The notes under the pieces were generated by a model. The model saw only the letters and a program-made list of their open reading frames with translations, was not told the DNA's origin and did no database searches. From Candidatus Nanosyncoccus sp. (GTDB taxonomy: Bacteria; Patescibacteriota; Saccharimonadia; Saccharimonadales; Saccharimonadaceae): 64,000 nt of DNA. Of the stretch, positions 32,081 through 54,704 are shown piece after piece. The stretch's first letter is position 1, and every line of letters starts with the position of its first letter. A program made the translations under genes and the position numbers. The stretch spans positions 17,228 to 81,227 of the forward strand of contig JAZSOC010000034.1 in the NCBI GenBank assembly GCA_045536725.1. Direction: 5' to 3'.

Positions 32081-34519
32081 TTATAACACGCCCCAATTGT
32101 TTCCGCTAGTCACTTCCACGTTAAAGCTTATCGGAAGTTCCGGTGCAATTCCCTCCATCGTCTTTCGCAAAATCTCCGAGACCTCTTCACGCAATTCAGT
32201 CTCACATTCCACTATCAACGAATCGTGCACCTGCAGAATCAATTCCGCCCCCTCCGGCAACAACTTATCCACCTTAATCATCGCCCGCTTCATCAAATCA
32301 GCCTCCGTCCCCTGAATTGGCATATTCTGCGCCGCTCTTTCTGCACCCATTCTAATCATATAATTCGACGATTTCACATCTGGCGTCGGTCTCCTCCGTC
32401 CATAAAATGTCGCCACATATCCCTCATTTCGCGCCTGTGCCAATGTGTCATCAAGATACTTTCTTATTGCCTTTCGCACTTCAAAGTAATGGTCAATAAA
32501 TTCCTTCGCCTCCACCACATTCATCCCAGCCGCTTCCGCGAGACCCTTCGCGCTCATTCCGTACAACACTCCAAAGTTAATCACTTTCGCCGCGCGCCGC
32601 TGTCTCTTCGTCACCTCACTCATCGGCACACCAAATACTTCCGAAGCCGTCTTCGTATGTACATCTACTCCCGAATTAAAGGTCTCCGTCAGACCATCAT
32701 CCCCAGAAAGCACCGCCGCAAGTCGCAGTTCAAACTGTGAATAATCCGCCGATACAAAGCATCTCCCCTCCGGCGCAATGAATCCTTCCCTTATCCTCTT
32801 CCCTGCCTCCGTTCGTACTGGAATATTTTGTAAATTCGGATTTAAGCTTGATAATCTTCCCGTCGCCGTTACATTCTGCGTAAAAGTCGTATGTATCCTC
32901 GATTCTTTATCCACCATGTCTGTCAATGGTAAAATATAAGTTGACAATAACTTCGCCACTTCCCGATATTCTAGGATTTTCGGAATTATCGGATGCTCAT
33001 CCTTCAATTTTTCTAGCTCTTTCGCTCCAGTAGAATAACCTCTCGACGTCTTTTTTATTCCCTTCACCGGCAAGCCCATCTTCTCAAACAGTATTTCCGA
33101 TAGCTGCATCGGCGAATTGATATTAAAGGCCACACCCGCCAATTCATTAATTTCCTGCACTAGCTCATTAATTTTTACTTCATACTCTTCTTTTAGTTTC
33201 CCAAAATATTCCTTATCTAGCTTTATCCCCCACTTTTCCATTTTATAAAGCACTGGAATCAGTGGTAAATCATACTCCGTAAAAATCCTATATAGCTGCT
33301 CATTTTTCTCAAATAACTTTTTCTGTCGCCAATATTCCCTCTTTTTATCAATTACTTCATCTTCATTCCTTCGCACCAAAGGATCTAATAAGAATCTCCC
33401 CTGCTCTAAATCCCAGAATTTTTCACCTGCCAGAATCCTTTTTGCTAACCTTTCATCTTCATGCATCTTCTTTTTTATATTAAAATCAATAATCACATCC
33501 TCTGGCAAATCTTCCGCTTCCTCTACTTCTTCTTCCTCCGCTTCATCCATATGACCTAATATTTCTCGCTCAAATCTTTTTACCAAAGACCTAAACTCTA
33601 ATTTATTTAATTCCCTTAGGACTCTTTTTCCATCAATTACAAAATCTGGTATCTCATTTATTGTTACCGGCGCATCCGTCATAATCTTTGCTAAACTCTT
33701 AGACATATATGCCAGCTCTTTCCCCGCCTCTAATCTCTTTGCCATACCGGGCGCTATCTCACCCAAATTTGCATAAATTCCGTCTAGATCACCGTATTTT
33801 TCCAGCAACTTCGCCGCACCCTTCTCGCCAATCCCCGGCACACCTGGAATATTATCTGAACTATCCCCCTTCAGCGCTTTTAGATCCAAGAATTGCTCTT
33901 TCTTAATGCCGTACTTTTCTTCCACTGCCGCCACATCCATTTTCTGTATATCAGAAAAACCTCTCATCACTCGGTACATTACCACATTATCATTCACCAC
34001 CTGCAGCATATCAAGATCCGACGATATAATTACCATAGACCAGGGTTGCGCATTAGTGGCAGAATTATGCGAGGAAGCGGGAGTAGCGGAAGGAGCCGTA
34101 TTTGGCATACGGCGACTGAGCAACGCATCCGCTGACGAAGCAGAATCCGCCACCTGATGCGCAAGCGTACCAATGATGTCATCGGCCTCATACCCATCGC
34201 ACTCCAAAAACCCCCACGAAAGCGCTGCTATTAGTTCCTTCAATAACGGTATCTGCGCGTAAAAATCCTCTGGCGGCTTCACTCGCCCAGCCTTATATTC
34301 CGGATAGATTGCTAATCTCTTCTCAGTCGATGTTCCCGCCTTATCCCACGCCACCACTACTTTGTCCGGCTTCAGCCTCCGCACAATTTCCATCGCAATC
34401 ACTGCAAATCCATACACCCCACTCGTCGACTGCCCATCTTTTGTCGAAAGTGTCCCCATCGCATAATATCCTCGATAGAAAACACTTTTACCGTCTATCA
34501 CCACCAGCTTCTTCATCAC
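32081..34519 (-). CDS. polA: DNA polymerase I
   Basis: 812 aa with a 5'-nuclease domain (YEADDIIGTLA, SSDLDMLQ) and polymerase motifs (DYSQFELR, RRAAKVINFGVLYGMS, QVHDSL). It contains the in-frame repeat at 34046-34164. Confidence 0.95.
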   Translation of the reverse strand: MMKKLVVIDGKSVFYRGYYAMGTLSTKDGQSTSGVYGFAVIAMEIVRRLKPDKVVVAWDKAGTSTEKRLAIYPEYKAGRVKPPEDFYAQIPLLKELIAALSWGFLECDGYEADDIIGTLAHQVADSASSADALLSRRMPNTAPSATPASSHNSATNAQPWSMVIISSDLDMLQVVNDNVVMYRVMRGFSDIQKMDVAAVEEKYGIKKEQFLDLKALKGDSSDNIPGVPGIGEKGAAKLLEKYGDLDGIYANLGEIAPGMAKRLEAGKELAYMSKSLAKIMTDAPVTINEIPDFVIDGKRVLRELNKLEFRSLVKRFEREILGHMDEAEEEEVEEAEDLPEDVIIDFNIKKKMHEDERLAKRILAGEKFWDLEQGRFLLDPLVRRNEDEVIDKKREYWRQKKLFEKNEQLYRIFTEYDLPLIPVLYKMEKWGIKLDKEYFGKLKEEYEVKINELVQEINELAGVAFNINSPMQLSEILFEKMGLPVKGIKKTSRGYSTGAKELEKLKDEHPIIPKILEYREVAKLLSTYILPLTDMVDKESRIHTTFTQNVTATGRLSSLNPNLQNIPVRTEAGKRIREGFIAPEGRCFVSADYSQFELRLAAVLSGDDGLTETFNSGVDVHTKTASEVFGVPMSEVTKRQRRAAKVINFGVLYGMSAKGLAEAAGMNVVEAKEFIDHYFEVRKAIRKYLDDTLAQARNEGYVATFYGRRRPTPDVKSSNYMIRMGAERAAQNMPIQGTEADLMKRAMIKVDKLLPEGAELILQVHDSLIVECETELREEVSEILRKTMEGIAPELPISFNVEVTSGNNWGVL
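34046..34164 (-). repeat. In-frame palindromic insertion element, copy 1 (inside polA)
   Basis: Terminal inverted arms ttgcgcattagtggc and gccacctgatgcgcaa, and a central hairpin at 34095-34113. The 70-nt core (34071-34140) is 57/70 identical to 44459-44528. It encodes SSADALLSRRMPNTAPSATPASS. Confidence 0.8.
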
Positions 34520-40553: not shown

Positions 40554-41077
40554 TTGAAAAATCCTATATACCATTTTAATTCGTCAATTGAGCCCTGAAT
40601 GTCATCTAACGCCCGATGCAGTTCTGGCTTCACGAACTTCTTCCCACGCGCCCCTTCAAAATACACTTTCCATGCTGATACATCCAGCATCCGATAATGC
40701 AACCTCTCCGCTAGCCGCGGCCACTCCCTATCGATAAATTTCCTATCCTGGTGGATGGAGTTACCCGCCAGTATCACTTCCTTGCCAAAATTTTGATCTA
40801 TAAATGCTAGCAGCCTGCCCTCCACATCAGAAGCCATAGCCCCATTTTCATTCTGTGCCATCAACGCATCTCGAGATTTAGCATTCTTCTCCCAAAATTC
40901 TCCCACCATCCGCTCTTTCATGAGCACTGGATCCACTTTCACTACATCTTCAAAGGTTGCCATCGGCTCTAAATCCCATCCCGTCGCAATCGCAGCCACC
41001 TCCAAAATTTTGTCTACCTCCGGATCTAACCCCGTCATCTCTAAATCCACCCATAAAAGTTTTGCCTTCTTACTCAT
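40550..41077 (-). CDS. orn: Oligoribonuclease
   Basis: 175 aa with DEDDh motifs (LLWVDLEMTGLDP, SIHQDRKFI, HRALDDIQGSI). The start shares a TAATG overlap with argS. Confidence 0.9.
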   Translation of the reverse strand: MSKKAKLLWVDLEMTGLDPEVDKILEVAAIATGWDLEPMATFEDVVKVDPVLMKERMVGEFWEKNAKSRDALMAQNENGAMASDVEGRLLAFIDQNFGKEVILAGNSIHQDRKFIDREWPRLAERLHYRMLDVSAWKVYFEGARGKKFVKPELHRALDDIQGSIDELKWYIGFFK

Positions 41078-42729
41078 TACATCTCCTCCGGCACTTCCAT
41101 GCCAAGTAGTGAAAGCCCATGCTCCATCACCTTTACATACACACGTACAATTTGCAAACGCTCCGCCTCTTCATCACTCCCCACCACTTTCACATTCTCA
41201 TAAAATCTGCTAAACTCTTGTGACAATTCATAAAGATACTGACACACCTTATGTGGTGCGAGCTCCTTTACTGCCTCAGCCAGCACATCCTCATATTGCA
41301 ACAATTTCTTAGCCAAAGTTTTTTCATGTTCATCGGTCAAAGCCACCTCAGCGAATTCTTCGGACGCACCCCGAGCTAGAATCTTCTTCGCTCTCACTAC
41401 TGAATACAATAAATACACTCCACTATTCCCCGTCGTTGCTACCGAAGATTTCACATCAAACTCAATATCCCCTCCCATTTTATATTTCAAAAAGGCATAT
41501 TTTGTCGCCGCAAGAACCACTCGCTTGTCAGTTTCCTCTGGCAAAGCATCAGCCACCGCCGCCAACACATCTCCTGCCCGCAAGAAATTCCCCTTCCTTG
41601 AGCTCATCTTCTCCATGCCTGGTAGCTTCACCATCCCGTGGGTTAAATGCTCCGTCTTCTCCACTAGCTCTGGCGCATACAATGAAACACTTTTTAGCAC
41701 CACCTTCATGTAATCAATAATTTCATTGCCAGTAATCACCACTGATTTATCAAAGTGATAATCATCCCACTTCGTAAAAAGTAGCCCCACATCCTTCGCC
41801 TCATAAGTCGGCAAGCCATCCTTATTGATAAACACTCTTGTATGTAGGCCATACTCTTCCCCTCTAAAAATCGTCGCACCATCACTTAAAACATAGACCT
41901 TCGGATGTGCCGTCACCTCCGTATAGCCACGCAGTGCCACACTAGATTCTGGGTAATATTTATCAAATTTCAACCCTAGCTCTGCATAAAACCTCTTAAA
42001 GTAATCATAGCTCGCCTTTCGCCCAATCCAGTAAATCGTCGCAAGGTCCGTGTTCCGCTTATCTTTTGCTACTATATTATATATTTCTTTATTCAGCTCC
42101 GTAATTTCTGCCCGCGCCTTCTCATCATCTTCATAAGCCCTCGTCCCCTCTACGTAGCACTGCGCCATCAGTTCCGCCTTTTCCTCCAAAGTCGGCAAAG
42201 CAAAGAACTCTTCCCTTTTATTCTGTAAAACATACAAATTTTTTGCCACGTGTAAGCCCACATCCCCACCAAAGTTTGCCCGCACTACTTTTCCACCCGC
42301 AAATTCAATCAGCCGTGATATCGCATCCCCCACCACAGAAGTATATAAATGCCCCACATGTAACACCTTAAAAGGGTTCGGGTCTGAAAATTCACAAACT
42401 ACCTTCTGCCCGGAATATTCATCCAGTGATATATTTTTATCAAAATCAACTACCAATTCCCCCAATTTCTGGTCATAATATTCATCTGGTGCGATAAAAT
42501 TTAAGAATCCTGGCCCCGCCACTTCCACCTTAAAATCAGTAACTTTCTCTGCTATCTTTTCCGCAATCTCTTTCGGTGATTTATGTAGCTCCCGAGTCAG
42601 CTGCATAGCAATATTTGACGCATAATCCGCCCCCGTATCTTCTGGCGCCGCCACCACCTCTGGCTGAACGTCTTCCATACCAAAAACATCACTAATAATC
42701 TTTCTCAGTTGCTCCTCTATCTCTCTCAT
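41077..42729 (-). CDS. argS: Arginyl-tRNA synthetase
   Basis: 550 aa with HIGH-type HVGHL, MSSRKG, and a C-terminal DALR anticodon-binding domain ending in M. Confidence 0.94.
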   Translation of the reverse strand: MREIEEQLRKIISDVFGMEDVQPEVVAAPEDTGADYASNIAMQLTRELHKSPKEIAEKIAEKVTDFKVEVAGPGFLNFIAPDEYYDQKLGELVVDFDKNISLDEYSGQKVVCEFSDPNPFKVLHVGHLYTSVVGDAISRLIEFAGGKVVRANFGGDVGLHVAKNLYVLQNKREEFFALPTLEEKAELMAQCYVEGTRAYEDDEKARAEITELNKEIYNIVAKDKRNTDLATIYWIGRKASYDYFKRFYAELGLKFDKYYPESSVALRGYTEVTAHPKVYVLSDGATIFRGEEYGLHTRVFINKDGLPTYEAKDVGLLFTKWDDYHFDKSVVITGNEIIDYMKVVLKSVSLYAPELVEKTEHLTHGMVKLPGMEKMSSRKGNFLRAGDVLAAVADALPEETDKRVVLAATKYAFLKYKMGGDIEFDVKSSVATTGNSGVYLLYSVVRAKKILARGASEEFAEVALTDEHEKTLAKKLLQYEDVLAEAVKELAPHKVCQYLYELSQEFSRFYENVKVVGSDEEAERLQIVRVYVKVMEHGLSLLGMEVPEEM

Positions 42730-43803: not shown

Positions 43804-45570
43804 CTAGCGAAGCGCCTTCATGAAGTGATAAAATAGTGGGTGCACTGCCATTGGCCTAGAGCGAAATTCTGGATGCGCCTGTGTCGCCACAAAGAATTTG
43901 CAATCTGGCGCCTCCACAAATTCCACTAGCTTTCCATCTGGCGAAAGCCCTGACACTTTCACTCCACCTTTCTCAATCTCTGGCAAAAACTTCTGGTTCA
44001 CCTCATAGCGATGCCGGTGCCTCTCCACCACATTAACATCACCATTTTTCACTGGCTTTATCCCCGCAGTAAAACACTCATCATCAAATTCTTTCTGATA
44101 AATCTTTGCGGTCTTTGTCCCCTTCTTGAGCACTGCCGGATAATCACCCAGTCGCATCGTCCCACCAGTAGACTCTTTCCCCTTTTGTCCTTCCATGATA
44201 TATATTACATTATTGCCATCTTTCTCGCTCGCACCAAACTCTTCCGAGTTTGCCTTCTTTACTCCACCCTTTCTCGCTGCTGCGACACAGGCCATTTGCA
44301 TCCCTAAACATAACCCCAAATACGGCACATCATTTTCTAGTGCATAAGTTGCCGCAGCAATCTTCCCCTCTGCGCCTCTCGCACCAAATCCTCCCGGCAC
44401 CACAATCCCATCCACTTCTCTAAGCATTTTCAACGCTTGCTCAGGGGGCGTCAGCTTCGAGGAGGCAGGAGTAGCGGACCGAGCCGTACTAGACGTACGG
44501 CGAGAGAGCAACACACCTGCTGACGAAGAAGATGACGCTGCCTGTGCAAGTGCTTCTGCGTTAATCCAAATAATTTCTAATCCCAAATTATGATGTATCG
44601 CCGCCGCCTTCAAAGCTTCTGTCACACAAATATACGTATCTGAATTCCCCACATACTTTGCCACCAACCCCACTTTTACTTTCTTTTTGTGTTCTTTCTT
44701 CTGCATCTTTGAGAACTTCTCCCAAGCCGTCATATCTGGCACTTTCTTATCGCCCATAAACTTGTTCAGGATATTCAGCACCCCAGAATTTAACACGTTA
44801 AACGGCACGTCATACACACTCTCGATATCTGGCAAATTCACTACTGCGTCACCAGAAATCCCGGCAAAAGCTGCAATTTTTTCACAAATCTCCCGGCCCG
44901 CCGGCTTCTCTGTCCGCACAAACACCATATCTGGTACAATCCCAAAACCACGCAAATCCTTCAAAGCATTCTGAGCCGGCTTCGTCTTTAACTCATGTGA
45001 AGCATTCAGCCACGGCACAAATACTACACTTGCATACATACAGTTCTCTCTTCCCACTCTGTTTGCAAACAATCTAATTGCCTCCACAAAAGCTAAACCT
45101 TCATAGTCACCAATTGTCCCACCCAGCTCCACAATATGCACATCAGACCCTTCCGATGCCTTCTCAATCTTCTCCTGTACCAACCCCGTAAAATGTGGAA
45201 CTAGCTGCACAGTCTTCCCGTGGAATCCCCCAGCACGCTCTTTCTCAATCAATTCTCGGTTAATTGCCCCAGAGAGAGTAATAGAATATTTATTGGTTTC
45301 TATATCCAAAAATCTCTCATAGTGCCCAAGGTCTAAATCTGTTTCCACTCCATCATGCGTCACAAAACATTCCCCATGCTCCACCGGATTTAAAAGTCCC
45401 GCATCCACATTTAGATACGGATCACATTTTTGGATAGAAACCTTATACCCCTTTGCTTTTAAAATCGCACCAATACTTGCTGCTGTAATTCCTTTTCCCA
45501 CCCCAGACAATACCCCTCCAGTCACAAAGATATATTTACAGGGCACAGTTCTCTCCTTTCGCCCACTCAC
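43804..45570 (-). CDS. pyrG: CTP synthase
   Basis: 588 aa with KYIFVTGGVLSGVGKG and the GATase domain LGLCLGMQ ... HRHRYEVN. It has a GTG start with an aaagagg SD and contains the in-frame repeat at 44436-44550. Confidence 0.95.
   Translation of the reverse strand: MSGRKERTVPCKYIFVTGGVLSGVGKGITAASIGAILKAKGYKVSIQKCDPYLNVDAGLLNPVEHGECFVTHDGVETDLDLGHYERFLDIETNKYSITLSGAINRELIEKERAGGFHGKTVQLVPHFTGLVQEKIEKASEGSDVHIVELGGTIGDYEGLAFVEAIRLFANRVGRENCMYASVVFVPWLNASHELKTKPAQNALKDLRGFGIVPDMVFVRTEKPAGREICEKIAAFAGISGDAVVNLPDIESVYDVPFNVLNSGVLNILNKFMGDKKVPDMTAWEKFSKMQKKEHKKKVKVGLVAKYVGNSDTYICVTEALKAAAIHHNLGLEIIWINAEALAQAASSSSSAGVLLSRRTSSTARSATPASSKLTPPEQALKMLREVDGIVVPGGFGARGAEGKIAAATYALENDVPYLGLCLGMQMACVAAARKGGVKKANSEEFGASEKDGNNVIYIMEGQKGKESTGGTMRLGDYPAVLKKGTKTAKIYQKEFDDECFTAGIKPVKNGDVNVVERHRHRYEVNQKFLPEIEKGGVKVSGLSPDGKLVEFVEAPDCKFFVATQAHPEFRSRPMAVHPLFYHFMKALR
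44436..44550 (-). repeat. In-frame palindromic insertion element, copy 2 (inside pyrG)
   Basis: The arm cttgctcagggggcgtcagcttc matches the reverse complement of gaagaagatgacgctgcctgtgcaag. The central hairpin is gccgtac-tagac-gtacggc (44483-44501). It encodes SSSAGVLLSRRTSSTARSATPASS. Confidence 0.8.
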
Positions 45571-47311: not shown

Positions 47312-47410
47312 TACCTTAATTATACCACACCCCCAAATTTTTGAATAAACAAAATCCGCCAAGGTGGTATTTTCTCTTGCCGAAGCGCATTTAGGAGTTC
47401 ATTTATAGAT

Positions 47411-47497
47411 AGAATCGTTCAAATGGGTGTTTTCTTCTACCCTTGCGCGATCTATTATCGAGCAACGGGTAGAAAAAACGCCCAGTTGGGCGATTCT
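47411..47497. repeat. Long imperfect inverted repeat (hairpin family member H3)
   Basis: Arms agaatcgttcaaatgggtgttttcttctaccc (47411-47442) and gggtagaaaaaacgcccagttgggcgattct (47467-47497). The loop gcgcgatctattatcgagca resembles the H1 loop at 10099-10121. Confidence 0.6.
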
Positions 47498-47510
47498 AGC
47501 AGCTATAAAT

Positions 47511-47622: not shown

Positions 47623-48096
47623 ATGATTACTACTAGTTGTTATTCTTCTTGTAATCTAAACGACGGTAATTTCCACTATTGTTCTATCTCTGGCGATCGT
47701 GGCAAAAGAGTGGGGTATGTCGGGAAATGTTATCGTGCTCTCGCACCAAAACTATCATTTTGGGAAATCTGGCACTCTAATATTGGAAAAATCCCCGTAT
47801 TAGACAATGACCGATTTTATGTTAGAGAATATTACAAACAAGTTCTGTCAAAACTAGATCCAAAAGAAGTTTATAAGGAATTAGATGGCCAAACCACAAT
47901 ACTCCTGTGCTATGAGCCTCATAATGAATTTTGTCATCGCCATATAGTTTCTGCATGGATGGAGCTAGCTACCGGTAAAATAGTCCCTGAAATCATGCAG
48001 CAAGAAAACAGTAACCTTATAAATGTTAGCAAACCTATCTGGGTAAAAGAGTATCTGGAAGATATTATCAAAAGTTGCAAAATGCCTAAACGGTAA
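47623..48096 (+). CDS. DUF488-like protein (tentative)
   Basis: 157 aa and AT-rich. LLCYEPHNEFCHRHIVSAWME resembles the DUF488 C-terminal CHR motif. SD aggagg lies upstream. Confidence 0.4.
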   Translation: MITTSCYSSCNLNDGNFHYCSISGDRGKRVGYVGKCYRALAPKLSFWEIWHSNIGKIPVLDNDRFYVREYYKQVLSKLDPKEVYKELDGQTTILLCYEPHNEFCHRHIVSAWMELATGKIVPEIMQQENSNLINVSKPIWVKEYLEDIIKSCKMPKR

Positions 48097-48679: not shown

Positions 48680-48789
48680 TGAATTCTTTCTTGAAAGCCG
48701 GTAGATTGGTATTTTCTCCGTGCGAGACGCATCTTCTGGATGGTCGAGCACGAAAAAATGCCGAGATACCGGCTTTCAACAAGAATTCA
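48680..48789. repeat. 23-24 bp inverted repeat abutting the tRNA-Ser(GGA) 3' end
   Basis: Arms tgaattctttcttgaaagccggta (48680-48703) and taccggctttcaacaagaattca (48767-48789). The right arm ends exactly at the base before the encoded CCA end. Confidence 0.6.
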
Positions 48790-48879
48790 TGGCGGAAGCG
48801 AGAGGATTCGAACCTCCGATACGGTTTCCCGCATACACGCGTTCCAGGCGTGCTCCTTCAACCACTCGGACACGCTTCC
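48790..48879 (-). tRNA. tRNA-Ser (GGA anticodon)
   Basis: The reverse complement reads ggaagcgtgtccgagtggttgaaggagc, then an anticodon loop ctGGAac, a long variable arm atgcgggaaaccgtat, T-arm ggaggttcgaatcctct, and an encoded CCA. TGATATAAT lies 10 nt upstream of the 5' end. Confidence 0.9.
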
Positions 48880-53137: not shown

Positions 53138-53393
53138 ACGCATATTTTTGTATTTTTCAACGCGCTCGTGTATAATAAATATTGACATATCTCATTCATA
53201 TAAAAGCGTGGATCGTTTTTAGAACTTATTTTTATTAAAAACACTTACCAAGAAGTACGGTATCGGCGTCATAAGTATTTTGTCGGTGCTGTCGCAGCTT
53301 GGTAAAAGGTGCACGCATGGATGAGATATGTCAGCTTGTGGCGCCGATACTCTACTTAAGCCATTGGTGCCACCAATATTAATGGAGGTACAA

Positions 53394-54704
53394 ATGCGCG
53401 ACAGCAAAAAATTCAAGCTCAAAAAATCATCTTATTCCCATTTCCTGGTGGGTGTTTTTATTTTCTTCTTCTCATTCTTTTCTTCAGCAATCATTTCTGG
53501 GATGCTCACGCCCGTTGATGATTCCTCCGCCCAGACCGTCTCCGTGGAAAATCGTGCCACCGGCTATTTCATCACTGTCACCGCCCCAGACTCTGCCGGG
53601 CTTAATGTTACCCCTTCTGCAGAAGACACCGTTTCAGTCTCCCCTGCCAGCAATGTTAACGTTTTGACCAATGCTCCTGGCGGCTATAAGCTTTACCTCT
53701 CAGCCACTAATGTCGATCTTTCCGCCACCAATATCACCCCCAAATTCACCCCTACAGAATCTTCTTCCCTTTCTCCCAACTCTTGGGGCTACAGCTTGGA
53801 CCAGTCCACCTGGTCCGGCATTACCACTTCAGAGGTAAACATCTCCAGCCGCGAGCAGTCTAATTATCCTAACGGCACCAATGTCCCAGTTTACTACGGA
53901 GTCAAGGCCAACACCACTATGCCAGCCGCCACCTACTCCACCACTGTCACTTACACCGCTTTCGCCGAAGGAATTTATCAAAAACTCAGCGACGTCGTAG
54001 CAGTCGGCGATTATGTCCACATGGTGCCAAACTACGTCGGCAGTTACACCCCTACCACTAATAGCAGCAGCCCATACTATACCGGCACCTCCACCCCCGG
54101 CTCCGTCACTCCATCTGAATTAGACACCTGGGTAGTAATTAAGAAAAATGCGAATGGTAGCCTAGAAATGGTAAGTAAAAATGTCTCTAGTTCAAATATT
54201 ACATTCTACGGAAGATCTGGGTATGATAATTTTGTAGAATCCCTTGAAAAAATCGCCGAACAATATGAAAATAGCAATTTTACAAGCAGCTCAAGGTATT
54301 TTGGCCATAAGGAGGGTGAAGTTATGTATAATGGAGGAGATAGTTCATCCTGGAGACACGGAGAAGGAAGTACTTATTATGAAACCGATATGAATCTAGT
54401 GAAGAATGCCTTAGGCGTCCGCGGAGAGGCAACATTAATTGCAGGCAATCCCAATAATGTAGTCGAATATTGGCTAGGCTCCTCTAGCTTTACTAATACT
54501 TCTACTCTTTGGTATTGTGAAGCTCGTTACATCACGACATCAGGAACAACTACCTACACAACACTATCCTCTCATGGAGTAGGCGGTACTCAATATGCAT
54601 TACCTAAAGCTATCCGCCCCATCCTCACCACCAAGCCCGACATCCTCGTCGATACCACCGGTGACGGCTCTGCCGCCCACCCCTGGGTCCTCACCACCTA
54701 CTGA
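53394..54704 (+). CDS. Secreted or anchored surface protein (N-domain paralogous to 23670..24305)
   Basis: The start MRDSKKF follows SD ggagg. It has an N-terminal TM/signal sequence, then a beta-rich domain ending AATYSTTVTYTAF, then a C-domain of about 230 aa. Confidence 0.5.
   Translation: MRDSKKFKLKKSSYSHFLVGVFIFFFSFFSSAIISGMLTPVDDSSAQTVSVENRATGYFITVTAPDSAGLNVTPSAEDTVSVSPASNVNVLTNAPGGYKLYLSATNVDLSATNITPKFTPTESSSLSPNSWGYSLDQSTWSGITTSEVNISSREQSNYPNGTNVPVYYGVKANTTMPAATYSTTVTYTAFAEGIYQKLSDVVAVGDYVHMVPNYVGSYTPTTNSSSPYYTGTSTPGSVTPSELDTWVVIKKNANGSLEMVSKNVSSSNITFYGRSGYDNFVESLEKIAEQYENSNFTSSSRYFGHKEGEVMYNGGDSSSWRHGEGSTYYETDMNLVKNALGVRGEATLIAGNPNNVVEYWLGSSSFTNTSTLWYCEARYITTSGTTTYTTLSSHGVGGTQYALPKAIRPILTTKPDILVDTTGDGSAAHPWVLTTY

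Follow-up and report, generated by a model that had tools for sequence, protein, structure and literature searches.

A family of palindromic DNA repeats located in frame within polA, pyrG and other genes of Saccharibacteria

The window analysed here, a stretch of 64,000 nucleotides from contig JAZSOC010000034.1 of Candidatus Nanosyncoccus sp., is a chromosome segment of a member of the Saccharibacteria (TM7, Candidate Phyla Radiation, CPR) with a G+C content of 44%. Saccharibacteria are ultrasmall episymbionts of the CPR with genomes of about 0.7-1 Mb. Two genes of the window, polA and pyrG, each contain an imperfect palindrome that lies in frame with the host gene (Table 1). The nearest relatives of both gene products all come from metagenome-assembled genomes of Candidatus Saccharibacteria, many of them from the ruminant gut, whereby the top PolA match in the protein collection shows 64% identity, so that the source genome seems not to be represented there. 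In polA the insert occupies the loop that follows the GTLA helix of the 5'-nuclease domain; in pyrG it is located early in the glutamine amidotransferase domain, between the motifs WINAE and VDGIVVPGGFG. Pfam analysis found the host domains of both proteins intact on either side of the insert: in PolA, PF02739 is split into two stretches around it and PF01367 and PF00476 were also detected, and PyrG yielded PF06418 and PF00117.

The initial annotation had described the polA segment as a palindromic element with terminal arms ttgcgcattagtggc (34046-34060) and gccacctgatgcgcaa (34149-34164), and the coordinates and sequences quoted there for arms and hairpin all proved exact on re-reading. The second copy in pyrG, with the same orientation and the same reading frame as the polA copy, was recovered as well, whereby the bounds given for it, 44436-44550, are to be replaced by those measured for the palindrome (Table 1). 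Both copies have 87 ungapped nt in common with 78% identity. A compensatory change distinguishes the two apical stems (GCCGTAT/ATACGGC versus GCCGTAC/GTACGGC), and a 3-nt indel between the copies is present in matched form on both arms. The G+C content of the elements is 56-61%, compared to 44% for the window. Folding yields one long, imperfect hairpin per copy, both for RNA (z-scores of -4.2 to -6.7) and for DNA (z-scores of -3.2 to -4.3), and in RNA folding the antisense strand of both copies is more stable than the sense strand. A hidden Markov model (HMM) built from 54 copies of other genomes, with the window excluded, recovered exactly these two sites (34051-34156 at E 2.5e-28 and 44428-44545 at E 1.4e-27), whereas the next match had an E-value of 3.7. 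Thus, the palindromes are a real observation and not a product of chance.

Table 1. Position of the palindromic elements, their apical hairpins and their host genes in the window.
Feature	Position	Strand	Description
Element copy 1	34046..34164	(-)	119-nt imperfect palindrome, in frame within polA; peptide ...LAHQVADSASSADALLSRRMPNTAPSATPASSHNSATNAQ...
Apical hairpin, copy 1	34095..34113	(-)	7-bp stem and 5-nt loop, GCCGTAT-NNNNN-ATACGGC (gccgtat-ttggc-atacggc)
Element copy 2	44432..44554	(-)	123-nt imperfect palindrome, in frame within pyrG; peptide ...ALAQAASSSSSAGVLLSRRTSSTARSATPASSKLTPPEQAL...
Apical hairpin, copy 2	44483..44501	(-)	GCCGTAC-NNNNN-GTACGGC
polA, host of copy 1	32081..34519	(-)	812 aa; 5'-nuclease and family A polymerase domains
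pyrG (CTP synthase), host of copy 2	43804..45570	(-)	588 aa

That the two segments belong to a larger repeat family, as the initial annotation had proposed, is confirmed by copies from many other genomes. An HMM made from seven copies, applied to the contigs of PyrG and PolA relatives, detected more copies inside argS and one right behind the stop of a pilin-like gene. From ten copies, the 34-nt core pattern CTCNNTCNNSGTAYNNNNNRTACSNCTCNNTCCG was written, for which about one chance match is estimated in 596 Gb. In the GTDB species genomes it matched at least 119 stretches, nearly all of them from Candidatus Saccharibacteria. The sources include ruminant and other guts, the human mouth, the termite gut and groundwater, and the complete genome of an oral strain (CP128407.1) is among the matches. 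The same pattern gave 0 matches in viral contigs, and thus there is no sign of a phage origin. An nhmmer search over the window and all collected loci (1.05 Mb) resulted in 135 non-redundant copies at E <= 1e-3 across 87 assemblies, whereby one assembly has 8 copies within 16 kb that were fetched. Most copies were collected by the fixed core pattern, which allows no variation at 19 core positions and overlooks diverged relatives, and both the copy numbers and the taxonomic range are to be taken as lower bounds. The survey covered 8-20 kb around each copy and is thus not a census per genome. Six pattern matches (L011, L046, L061, L106, L108, L115) come from assemblies labelled Gammaproteobacteria, Paceibacterota, Yanofskybacteria and Acidobacteriota; these contigs are either mis-binned Saccharibacteria or a hint to a wider range of the family. 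At locus L064 (389-2552; JAFWOH010000011.1), five full or partial copies, all with one orientation, are found together in ~2.2 kb of largely non-coding sequence beside a tRNA-Arg(CCT), and two of the five constitute a 221-bp tandem duplication.

The members of the family have a common anatomy. A conserved core of ~80 nt surrounds the 7-bp stem with its 5-nt loop and is flanked by outer arms of ~18-20 bp, and the total length of the palindrome is uniform with a median of 120 nt. Counted from the loop, arm pairing extends over a median of 58 nt, whereas shuffling of the outer right flank leaves 6 nt. The arm sequences differ among subfamilies and among copies and diverge faster than the core, yet the two arms within one copy still pair. 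Two types of arm termini were distinguished, CTTGCTCAGAA...TTCTGAGCAAG (type A), to which both window copies are similar, and GGAGCTC...GAGCTCC (type B). [quoted passage not shown]

Judged by the flanking peptides, the family occupies ~20 distinct insertion sites in at least 10 protein families. According to Pfam, the host proteins comprise class I aminoacyl-tRNA synthetases (IleS type), ArgS, PolA, PyrG and Fpg/MutM, as well as a LepA-like GTPase, an MraY-type transferase, a response regulator and a type IV secretion coupling protein. Among the 50 copies at E <= 1e-15, 33 are located in sense orientation in an open reading frame (ORF) of at least 200 aa, all of them in one frame, 0 are antisense only and 17 lie outside of a long ORF. 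The corresponding numbers for the 135 copies at E <= 1e-3 are 61 in sense orientation (58 in the main frame, 3 in another), 7 antisense only and 67 outside. The in-frame colonisation of ORFs that the initial annotation had suggested therefore holds for 33 of 33 high-confidence genic copies, whereas a specificity for ORFs does not, since about two thirds of the high-confidence copies are intragenic and about a third are intergenic. The consensus sequence has stop codons in all three antisense frames, which accounts for the sense-only orientation of the genic copies, whereas the three sense frames are open. The used sense frame reads STSSADALLTHRTSSTARSATPAS, a hydrophilic peptide rich in Ser, Thr, Ala and Pro (..SS.DALL..R.S.T.RS.TP.SS..), of which the IleS insert of oral strains shows the stretch ...YAEVDEFTFPYDTASSDAFLVHR..., and the unused ones read LLRQQMRCSLTVRQVRLVPLLL and YFVSRCVAHSPYVKYGSFRYSC. 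In the used frame, 44 of 46 genic copies are free of stop codons over the full element, compared to 11 of 34 intergenic copies. This is strong, indirect evidence that the genic copies are translated. Judged by the lack of stop codons and the single frame, the insert is probably retained in the mRNA and the protein.

The intergenic copies are found mainly at gene ends. Of 40 flank contacts, 28 involve the 3' end of a gene: in 18 of them a co-oriented upstream gene stops no more than 30 nt away from the copy, and in 10 a convergent downstream gene adjoins the copy with its 3' end. The other 12 contacts are with gene 5' sides. Several intergenic copies are followed by a GGTTCGAG-like motif, and few copies are near tRNA genes. 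Insertion into tRNA genes or tRNA introns was considered and rejected, as ARAGORN, run with and without intron search, reported no tRNA that holds a copy. A diverged subfamily occurs two or three times in a single fpg/mutM gene (L096, 6421-7299; L121, 2420-3279) and also at the pyrG site of P0225; in translation, this subfamily reads ..SDSPVRSHR.L.TAPLRASNLP.. or ..SPSPYPKYGSVRSS..; thus, other frames or variants seem to be tolerated sometimes. The only plausible antisense genic copy among those inspected is a weak match (E 2e-6) in tsaD of L104 (3718-3805), which lies in an intact TsaD ORF with ~60 added residues.

In order to describe the effect of the insert on a host protein, PolA residues 1-321 were modelled with AlphaFold2 from 58 homologues. 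The model has a mean predicted local distance difference test (pLDDT) score of 93, with values >95 outside of residues 121-160, and the 5'-nuclease fold is confident. The drop in pLDDT is confined to the insert (~residues 121-160), for which the ten-residue blocks score 86, 72, 55 and 69 and which is modelled as an extension of helix 111-135 followed by coil. For PolA, the insert is thereby predicted to lie in a variable region at the surface and to be compatible with the host fold. This agrees with the tolerated surface loop that was postulated in the initial annotation, since the model places the insert as a low-confidence surface extension.

The distribution of the element among orthologues is patchy. 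An insert at the site of copy 1 was found in 4 of 120 PolA relatives, all among the five closest matches, and in PyrG about 25 of 120 relatives have an insert at one site, whereby the two closest orthologues are without it. Thus, the residues of PolA that the initial annotation had regarded as extra are indeed missing from 116 of 120 relatives, and the corresponding segment is missing from about 95 of 120 PyrG relatives; the loop length of PolA varies among orthologues. In the nearest pyrG relative found (L130, 79% nucleotide identity), the site is empty, with 25 nt compared to 136 nt in the window, and no element copy was detected within 21.6 kb of L130. ArgS shows reciprocal presence and absence: in L004 site B is occupied and site A is empty, whereas L009 shows the opposite. 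The argS gene of the window (41077-42729) has neither of the inserts, which follow KTLYAL and RAKKILA, and therefore serves as an empty-site reference. The presence or absence among relatives, a check proposed in the initial annotation, was thus seen for PolA, PyrG and ArgS alike. Element cores and host genes are also decoupled in their similarity. The polA genes of L002 and L071 share 91% protein identity in the host flanks but only 55% identity in the cores, whereas non-orthologous cores can be 94-97% identical, as in pyrG of L004 and the coupling-protein gene of L067 (97%). Finally, the arms found in one and the same pyrG loop are of type A in some lineages and of type B in others. Patchy and reciprocal presence, the decoupling of core and host and the two subfamilies in one loop together require repeated insertion or replacement, i.e. 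mobility of the element.

It was also considered whether the outer arms are, as a general rule, created from the target sequence at insertion. This was rejected because the arms form subfamilies, because the 97%-identical non-orthologous cores have homologous arms and because the length is uniform at ~120 nt; for the outermost extension of some copies a target-derived origin may apply. One of the four PolA relatives counted with an insert, P0005 (L001, 3557-4684), holds a different, very GC-rich palindrome in the loop, with the core GCCCGGCCCAT-CGCC-ATGGGCGGGC and the outer arms CATGAGG..CTCTTTC / GAAAGAG..CCTCATG, which points to a hot spot where either a second family is present or the core has been remodelled. 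In L001, gene calling splits polA into ORFs of 375 aa and 510 aa, and an upstream gene has a weak RVT_1 match. In PyrG of P0158 only the flanking parts of the insert are left (AAEYSAS...SSSHSISAIEAL), which looks like an internal deletion of the palindrome centre.

The conservation of the element acts on the nucleotide sequence. Entropy in the genic copies amounts to 0.74, 0.78 and 0.76 for the first, second and third codon position, respectively, and intergenic and genic copies have the same conserved columns. Since third positions are not in excess and the columns are common to intergenic copies, it is the nucleotides and not the peptide that are conserved. At orthologous sites, the mean nucleotide identity of the core is 0.65 for IleS site A, 0.72 for PyrG, 0.61 for PolA and 0.73 for ArgS site A, compared to 0.44, 0.45, 0.46 and 0.44, respectively, for the third codon positions of the host gene, and the core is slower than host third positions even in copies that were collected without the pattern.

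The pairing between the arms shows extensive covariation. RNAalifold, applied to the ungapped MAFFT alignment of 56 copies, predicted 23 pairs, 15 of them with compensatory changes. For a 36-pair structure, 83.8% of the cells in the 56 copies form a standard pair, compared to a mean of 62.5% after shuffling, and 490 cells are changed on both sides, compared to a shuffled mean of 177; neither value was reached in any of 500 shuffles (0/500 each). When the 3' partner was slid by 1-3 columns as a control, 37-43% were paired. The inner helices are 89-99% paired, and the family pairs 57-62/68-73 reach 98.8%, with CG and UA alternating at pair 62/68. Watson-Crick pairing is higher in the outer arms (85%) than in the core (65%), which contains conserved pyrimidine-rich mismatched stretches, CTC..TC on both arms, as part of the conserved motif CTC..TC..CGTAC/GTACG.CTC..TCCG. 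Flips between GC and CG and between AU and UA are common, whereas G.U (or A.C) intermediates are nearly absent. Across all copies, the sense strand has 150 G.T and 164 A.C mismatches (p = 0.46), and this equal rarity means that neither strand is favoured, as predicted for a DNA palindrome and unlike an RNA helix. A strand-specific RNA structure was therefore rejected, as the antisense preference of the window copies does not extend to the family. Two further observations concern the way in which the arms change. Between the orthologous IleS copies of L056 and L111, one outer arm has 3 substitutions, and all 3 are matched on the other arm. At ArgS site B of L004, the right outer arm reads GCTGCTAGTACTTCCTGG, i.e. 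the inverted complement of the sequence CCAGGAAGATACTAGCAGC that encodes the host-conserved A-R-K-I-L-A, and this right arm is absent from the empty site of L009.

Taken together, we consider it probable that the two segments are members of a ~120-nt palindromic DNA repeat family that is dispersed in Saccharibacteria, mobile and tolerated in frame in genes. New sites would be reached by a copy-and-insert process that leaves no target-site duplication, and host selection would then determine which copies persist. Intergenic survivors would be found mainly at gene 3' ends. Genic survivors would be restricted to the sense orientation, to the one frame that gives the hydrophilic Ser/Thr/Ala/Pro-rich peptide and to variable surface loops such as those of PolA and PyrG, where they would be transcribed and translated as a tolerated, largely disordered extension. 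The palindrome would be kept at the DNA level, most likely by templated arm-to-arm correction via hairpin or template-switch intermediates, and this correction might sometimes extend the palindrome into host codons. As the segment is not conserved in distant PolA orthologues and nucleotide-level copies exist elsewhere, the interpretation of the initial annotation is supported.

Several points weigh against this explanation. A purely neutral, dead insertion should decay, but the core is more conserved than host third positions at orthologous sites (0.61-0.73 compared to 0.44-0.46), and the palindrome has been kept through many compensatory changes, so that some constraint, conversion or turnover must act, and a host function for the element is possible. 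No target-site duplication was detected, as the best flanking direct repeat measures 2.70 nt compared to 2.68 nt in controls with mismatched flanks, and no transposase or other mobilising gene turned up, for which no systematic search was made. Moreover, the case for translation of the insert consists of frame statistics only, and the collection by a fixed pattern inflates the apparent conservation of the 19 core positions and hides diverged relatives. A further-reaching reading, to which we give a clearly smaller chance, regards the element as more than a decaying passenger, namely as a DNA palindrome that is actively maintained by arm correction, so that its arms stay complementary over long evolutionary periods. 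It could then grow outward by copying host codons in inverted form and thereby continually rewrite surface loops of essential enzymes throughout the phylum. In the strongest form of this reading, the conserved core would be bound by a host or element-encoded protein and would have acquired a function. Such active maintenance would fit with the ArgS arm of L004, the matched 3-nt indel, the flips without intermediates and the slow core.

Among the rival explanations, two appear unlikely to us to about the same degree. According to one of them, selection acts on a structured RNA, whereby the hairpin of the transcript would, for example, stabilise or terminate 3' ends, provide an RNase III site or cause a translational pause and the intragenic copies would be regulatory. 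The very strong covariation, a core that is slower than synonymous sites, the preference of intergenic copies for gene 3' ends and the more stable antisense fold of both window copies would be in line with it. However, neither strand is favoured over the family as a whole, and the common GC/CG and AU/UA flips with almost no G.U intermediates fit better with a DNA palindrome. In addition, most high-confidence copies are inside ORFs, the intergenic copies inspected have no U-run behind them, and an Rfam scan at gathering and E-value thresholds gave no match at the element. The other explanation assumes that there is no current mobility: a few ancient insertions would have been inherited vertically and repeatedly lost, and the similarity of copies would result from gene conversion and from recombination among naturally competent relatives. 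One IleS site (after YAEVD) is occupied in both human oral and ruminant lineages, copies within a genome are just ~78% identical, and the missing target-site duplication, together with the lack of a transposase in the sequence at hand (no systematic search), would also be compatible with ancient insertions. On the other hand, ~20 distinct sites in at least 10 gene families, the two ArgS sites with reciprocal presence and absence in related genomes, the identity of 94-97% between non-orthologous cores compared to values as low as 55% between orthologous copies and the two arm subfamilies in one pyrG loop require new insertions.

Much less probable still is that the segment is kept by protein selection as a peptide module with a function of its own, e.g. 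as a linker or as a tag for interaction or localisation, for which the palindrome would be incidental. It is true that the motif SS.DALL..R.S.T.RS.TP.SS recurs in many proteins and always in one frame, but third codon positions are no more variable than the others, the same DNA is present in intergenic regions with stop codons in the used frame of many such copies, the segment is predicted to be disordered, and protein selection cannot account for the palindromic covariation. A profile of the insert peptide, searched against 5.8 billion proteins, yielded 76 word-sharing candidates and none at E <= 10, whereby the peptide is short and of low complexity for a search of this kind. The least probable case in our view is an intervening sequence, i.e. 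an intron or a mini-intein that is removed after transcription or translation. The hairpin does join the ends of the insert, as in bulge-helix-bulge introns, but removal at the RNA level would impose neither the frame (58 of 61 genic copies) nor the stop constraint, no intein or intron family was matched in Pfam or Rfam, and ARAGORN showed no element copy in an intron-containing tRNA.

With regard to known systems, the closest likeness is to the Rickettsia palindromic elements (RPE), which are palindromic repeats located in frame in unrelated housekeeping genes, where each of them adds a conserved peptide (PMC10969869). Both are palindromic repeats of ~100-150 bp that are intergenic as well as in frame in unrelated housekeeping genes, both occur in host-dependent bacteria with reduced genomes, and every copy contributes a conserved peptide; moreover, the Saccharibacteria insert is predicted to lie on the surface with the fold undisturbed. 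The family therefore shows the behaviour of the RPE-like class, a multi-copy palindrome that is in frame in unrelated genes without disrupting them, and the likeness to RPE noted in the initial annotation holds for behaviour. A sequence relationship is not expected; the hosts here are Patescibacteria/CPR and those of RPE are Alphaproteobacteria. In contrast to RPE, the Saccharibacteria family has variable, covarying outer arms and a core that is slower than synonymous sites at orthologous positions, and its range covers at least 87 species-level genomes, with gut, mouth, termite gut and groundwater as sources.

With MITEs such as Correia/NEMIS, ERIC and Nezha the element has in common that it is small, non-coding and multi-copy, with inverted-repeat termini capable of forming hairpins, that it is sometimes intragenic and that it is frequently found at gene ends. 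It differs from them in having no target-site duplication and in being palindromic as a whole and not at its termini alone, and no parent insertion sequence with matching ends turned up in the 8-20 kb around each copy, which was not a systematic search. Repetitive extragenic palindromic sequences (REPs) and bacterial interspersed mosaic elements (BIMEs), which are mobilised by REP-associated tyrosine transposases (RAYT, i.e. IS200/IS605-like Y1 transposases), as well as palindrome-associated transposable elements, resemble the family in their palindromic hairpins, the lack of target-site duplications and the favoured gene 3' ends. Recognition of hairpins in single-stranded DNA, as in REP/BIME, would fit with the DNA-level palindromy by analogy. 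REPs are 20-40 bp long and extragenic, whereas the Saccharibacteria element has ~120 nt and is frequently intragenic. The GC-rich palindromic clusters or double-hairpin elements of fungal mitochondria are richer in G+C than their genome and can be in frame in protein-coding genes. The element described here is likewise G+C-rich and in frame in genes, but the fungal clusters belong to an organelle of another lineage, are usually shorter and have no sequence relationship to it. Assignments as a typical MITE, REP, structured RNA, intron or intein were each tried, and in each case the element departed from the class in one or more of its traits. In the open-access literature we found no report that pairs Saccharibacteria with palindromic elements, nor one on miniature inverted-repeat elements among the papers listed for these elements together with CPR. 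We file the repeats as a new family showing RPE-like behaviour, whose unusual traits are the covarying arms, the slow core and a phylum-wide range that includes human oral strains.

To our knowledge, Rickettsia is the only textbook case in which palindromic selfish DNA has colonised essential genes in frame. The Saccharibacteria case suggests that such colonisation is not an oddity of Rickettsia but a general outcome where genomes are small, host-dependent and poor in intergenic space. The inserts would explain odd low-complexity segments in aminoacyl-tRNA synthetases, PolA, PyrG, LepA and other proteins of the phylum, which can distort alignments, phylogenies, domain calls and structure predictions, and they could be used as presence/absence markers for lineage typing. 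The strict covariation at the DNA level, together with the apparent growth of the palindrome into host codons, offers a natural system in which the maintenance of long palindromes in bacteria can be studied. Cultures of several Saccharibacteria exist, and genetic manipulation is possible in at least one of them (PMC10633639), so that transcription and translation of the inserts, as well as their cost or benefit, are directly testable.

The window contains further palindromes apart from the two elements. Nested inverted repeats (pairs I4, I8, I14 and I7) at 53183-53406 and 53692-53839 surround the start of the ORF 53328-54704. An intergenic hairpin of ~105 nt at 48683-48787 (DNA fold of -30.6 kcal/mol, z -8.9), located directly upstream of tRNA-Ser(GGA) at 48790-48879, has no match to the element HMM. 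The same applies to an intergenic hairpin at 47405-47503 (DNA fold of -34.4 kcal/mol, z -10.1), which is nearly perfect over ~95 nt, has a 5-nt loop and lies between ORFs that end at 47362 and start at 47623. Its apex, CTTGCGCGAT-CTATT-ATCGAGCAAC, is similar to the type A termini of the element, and it may represent another palindromic repeat family or an element-related remnant.

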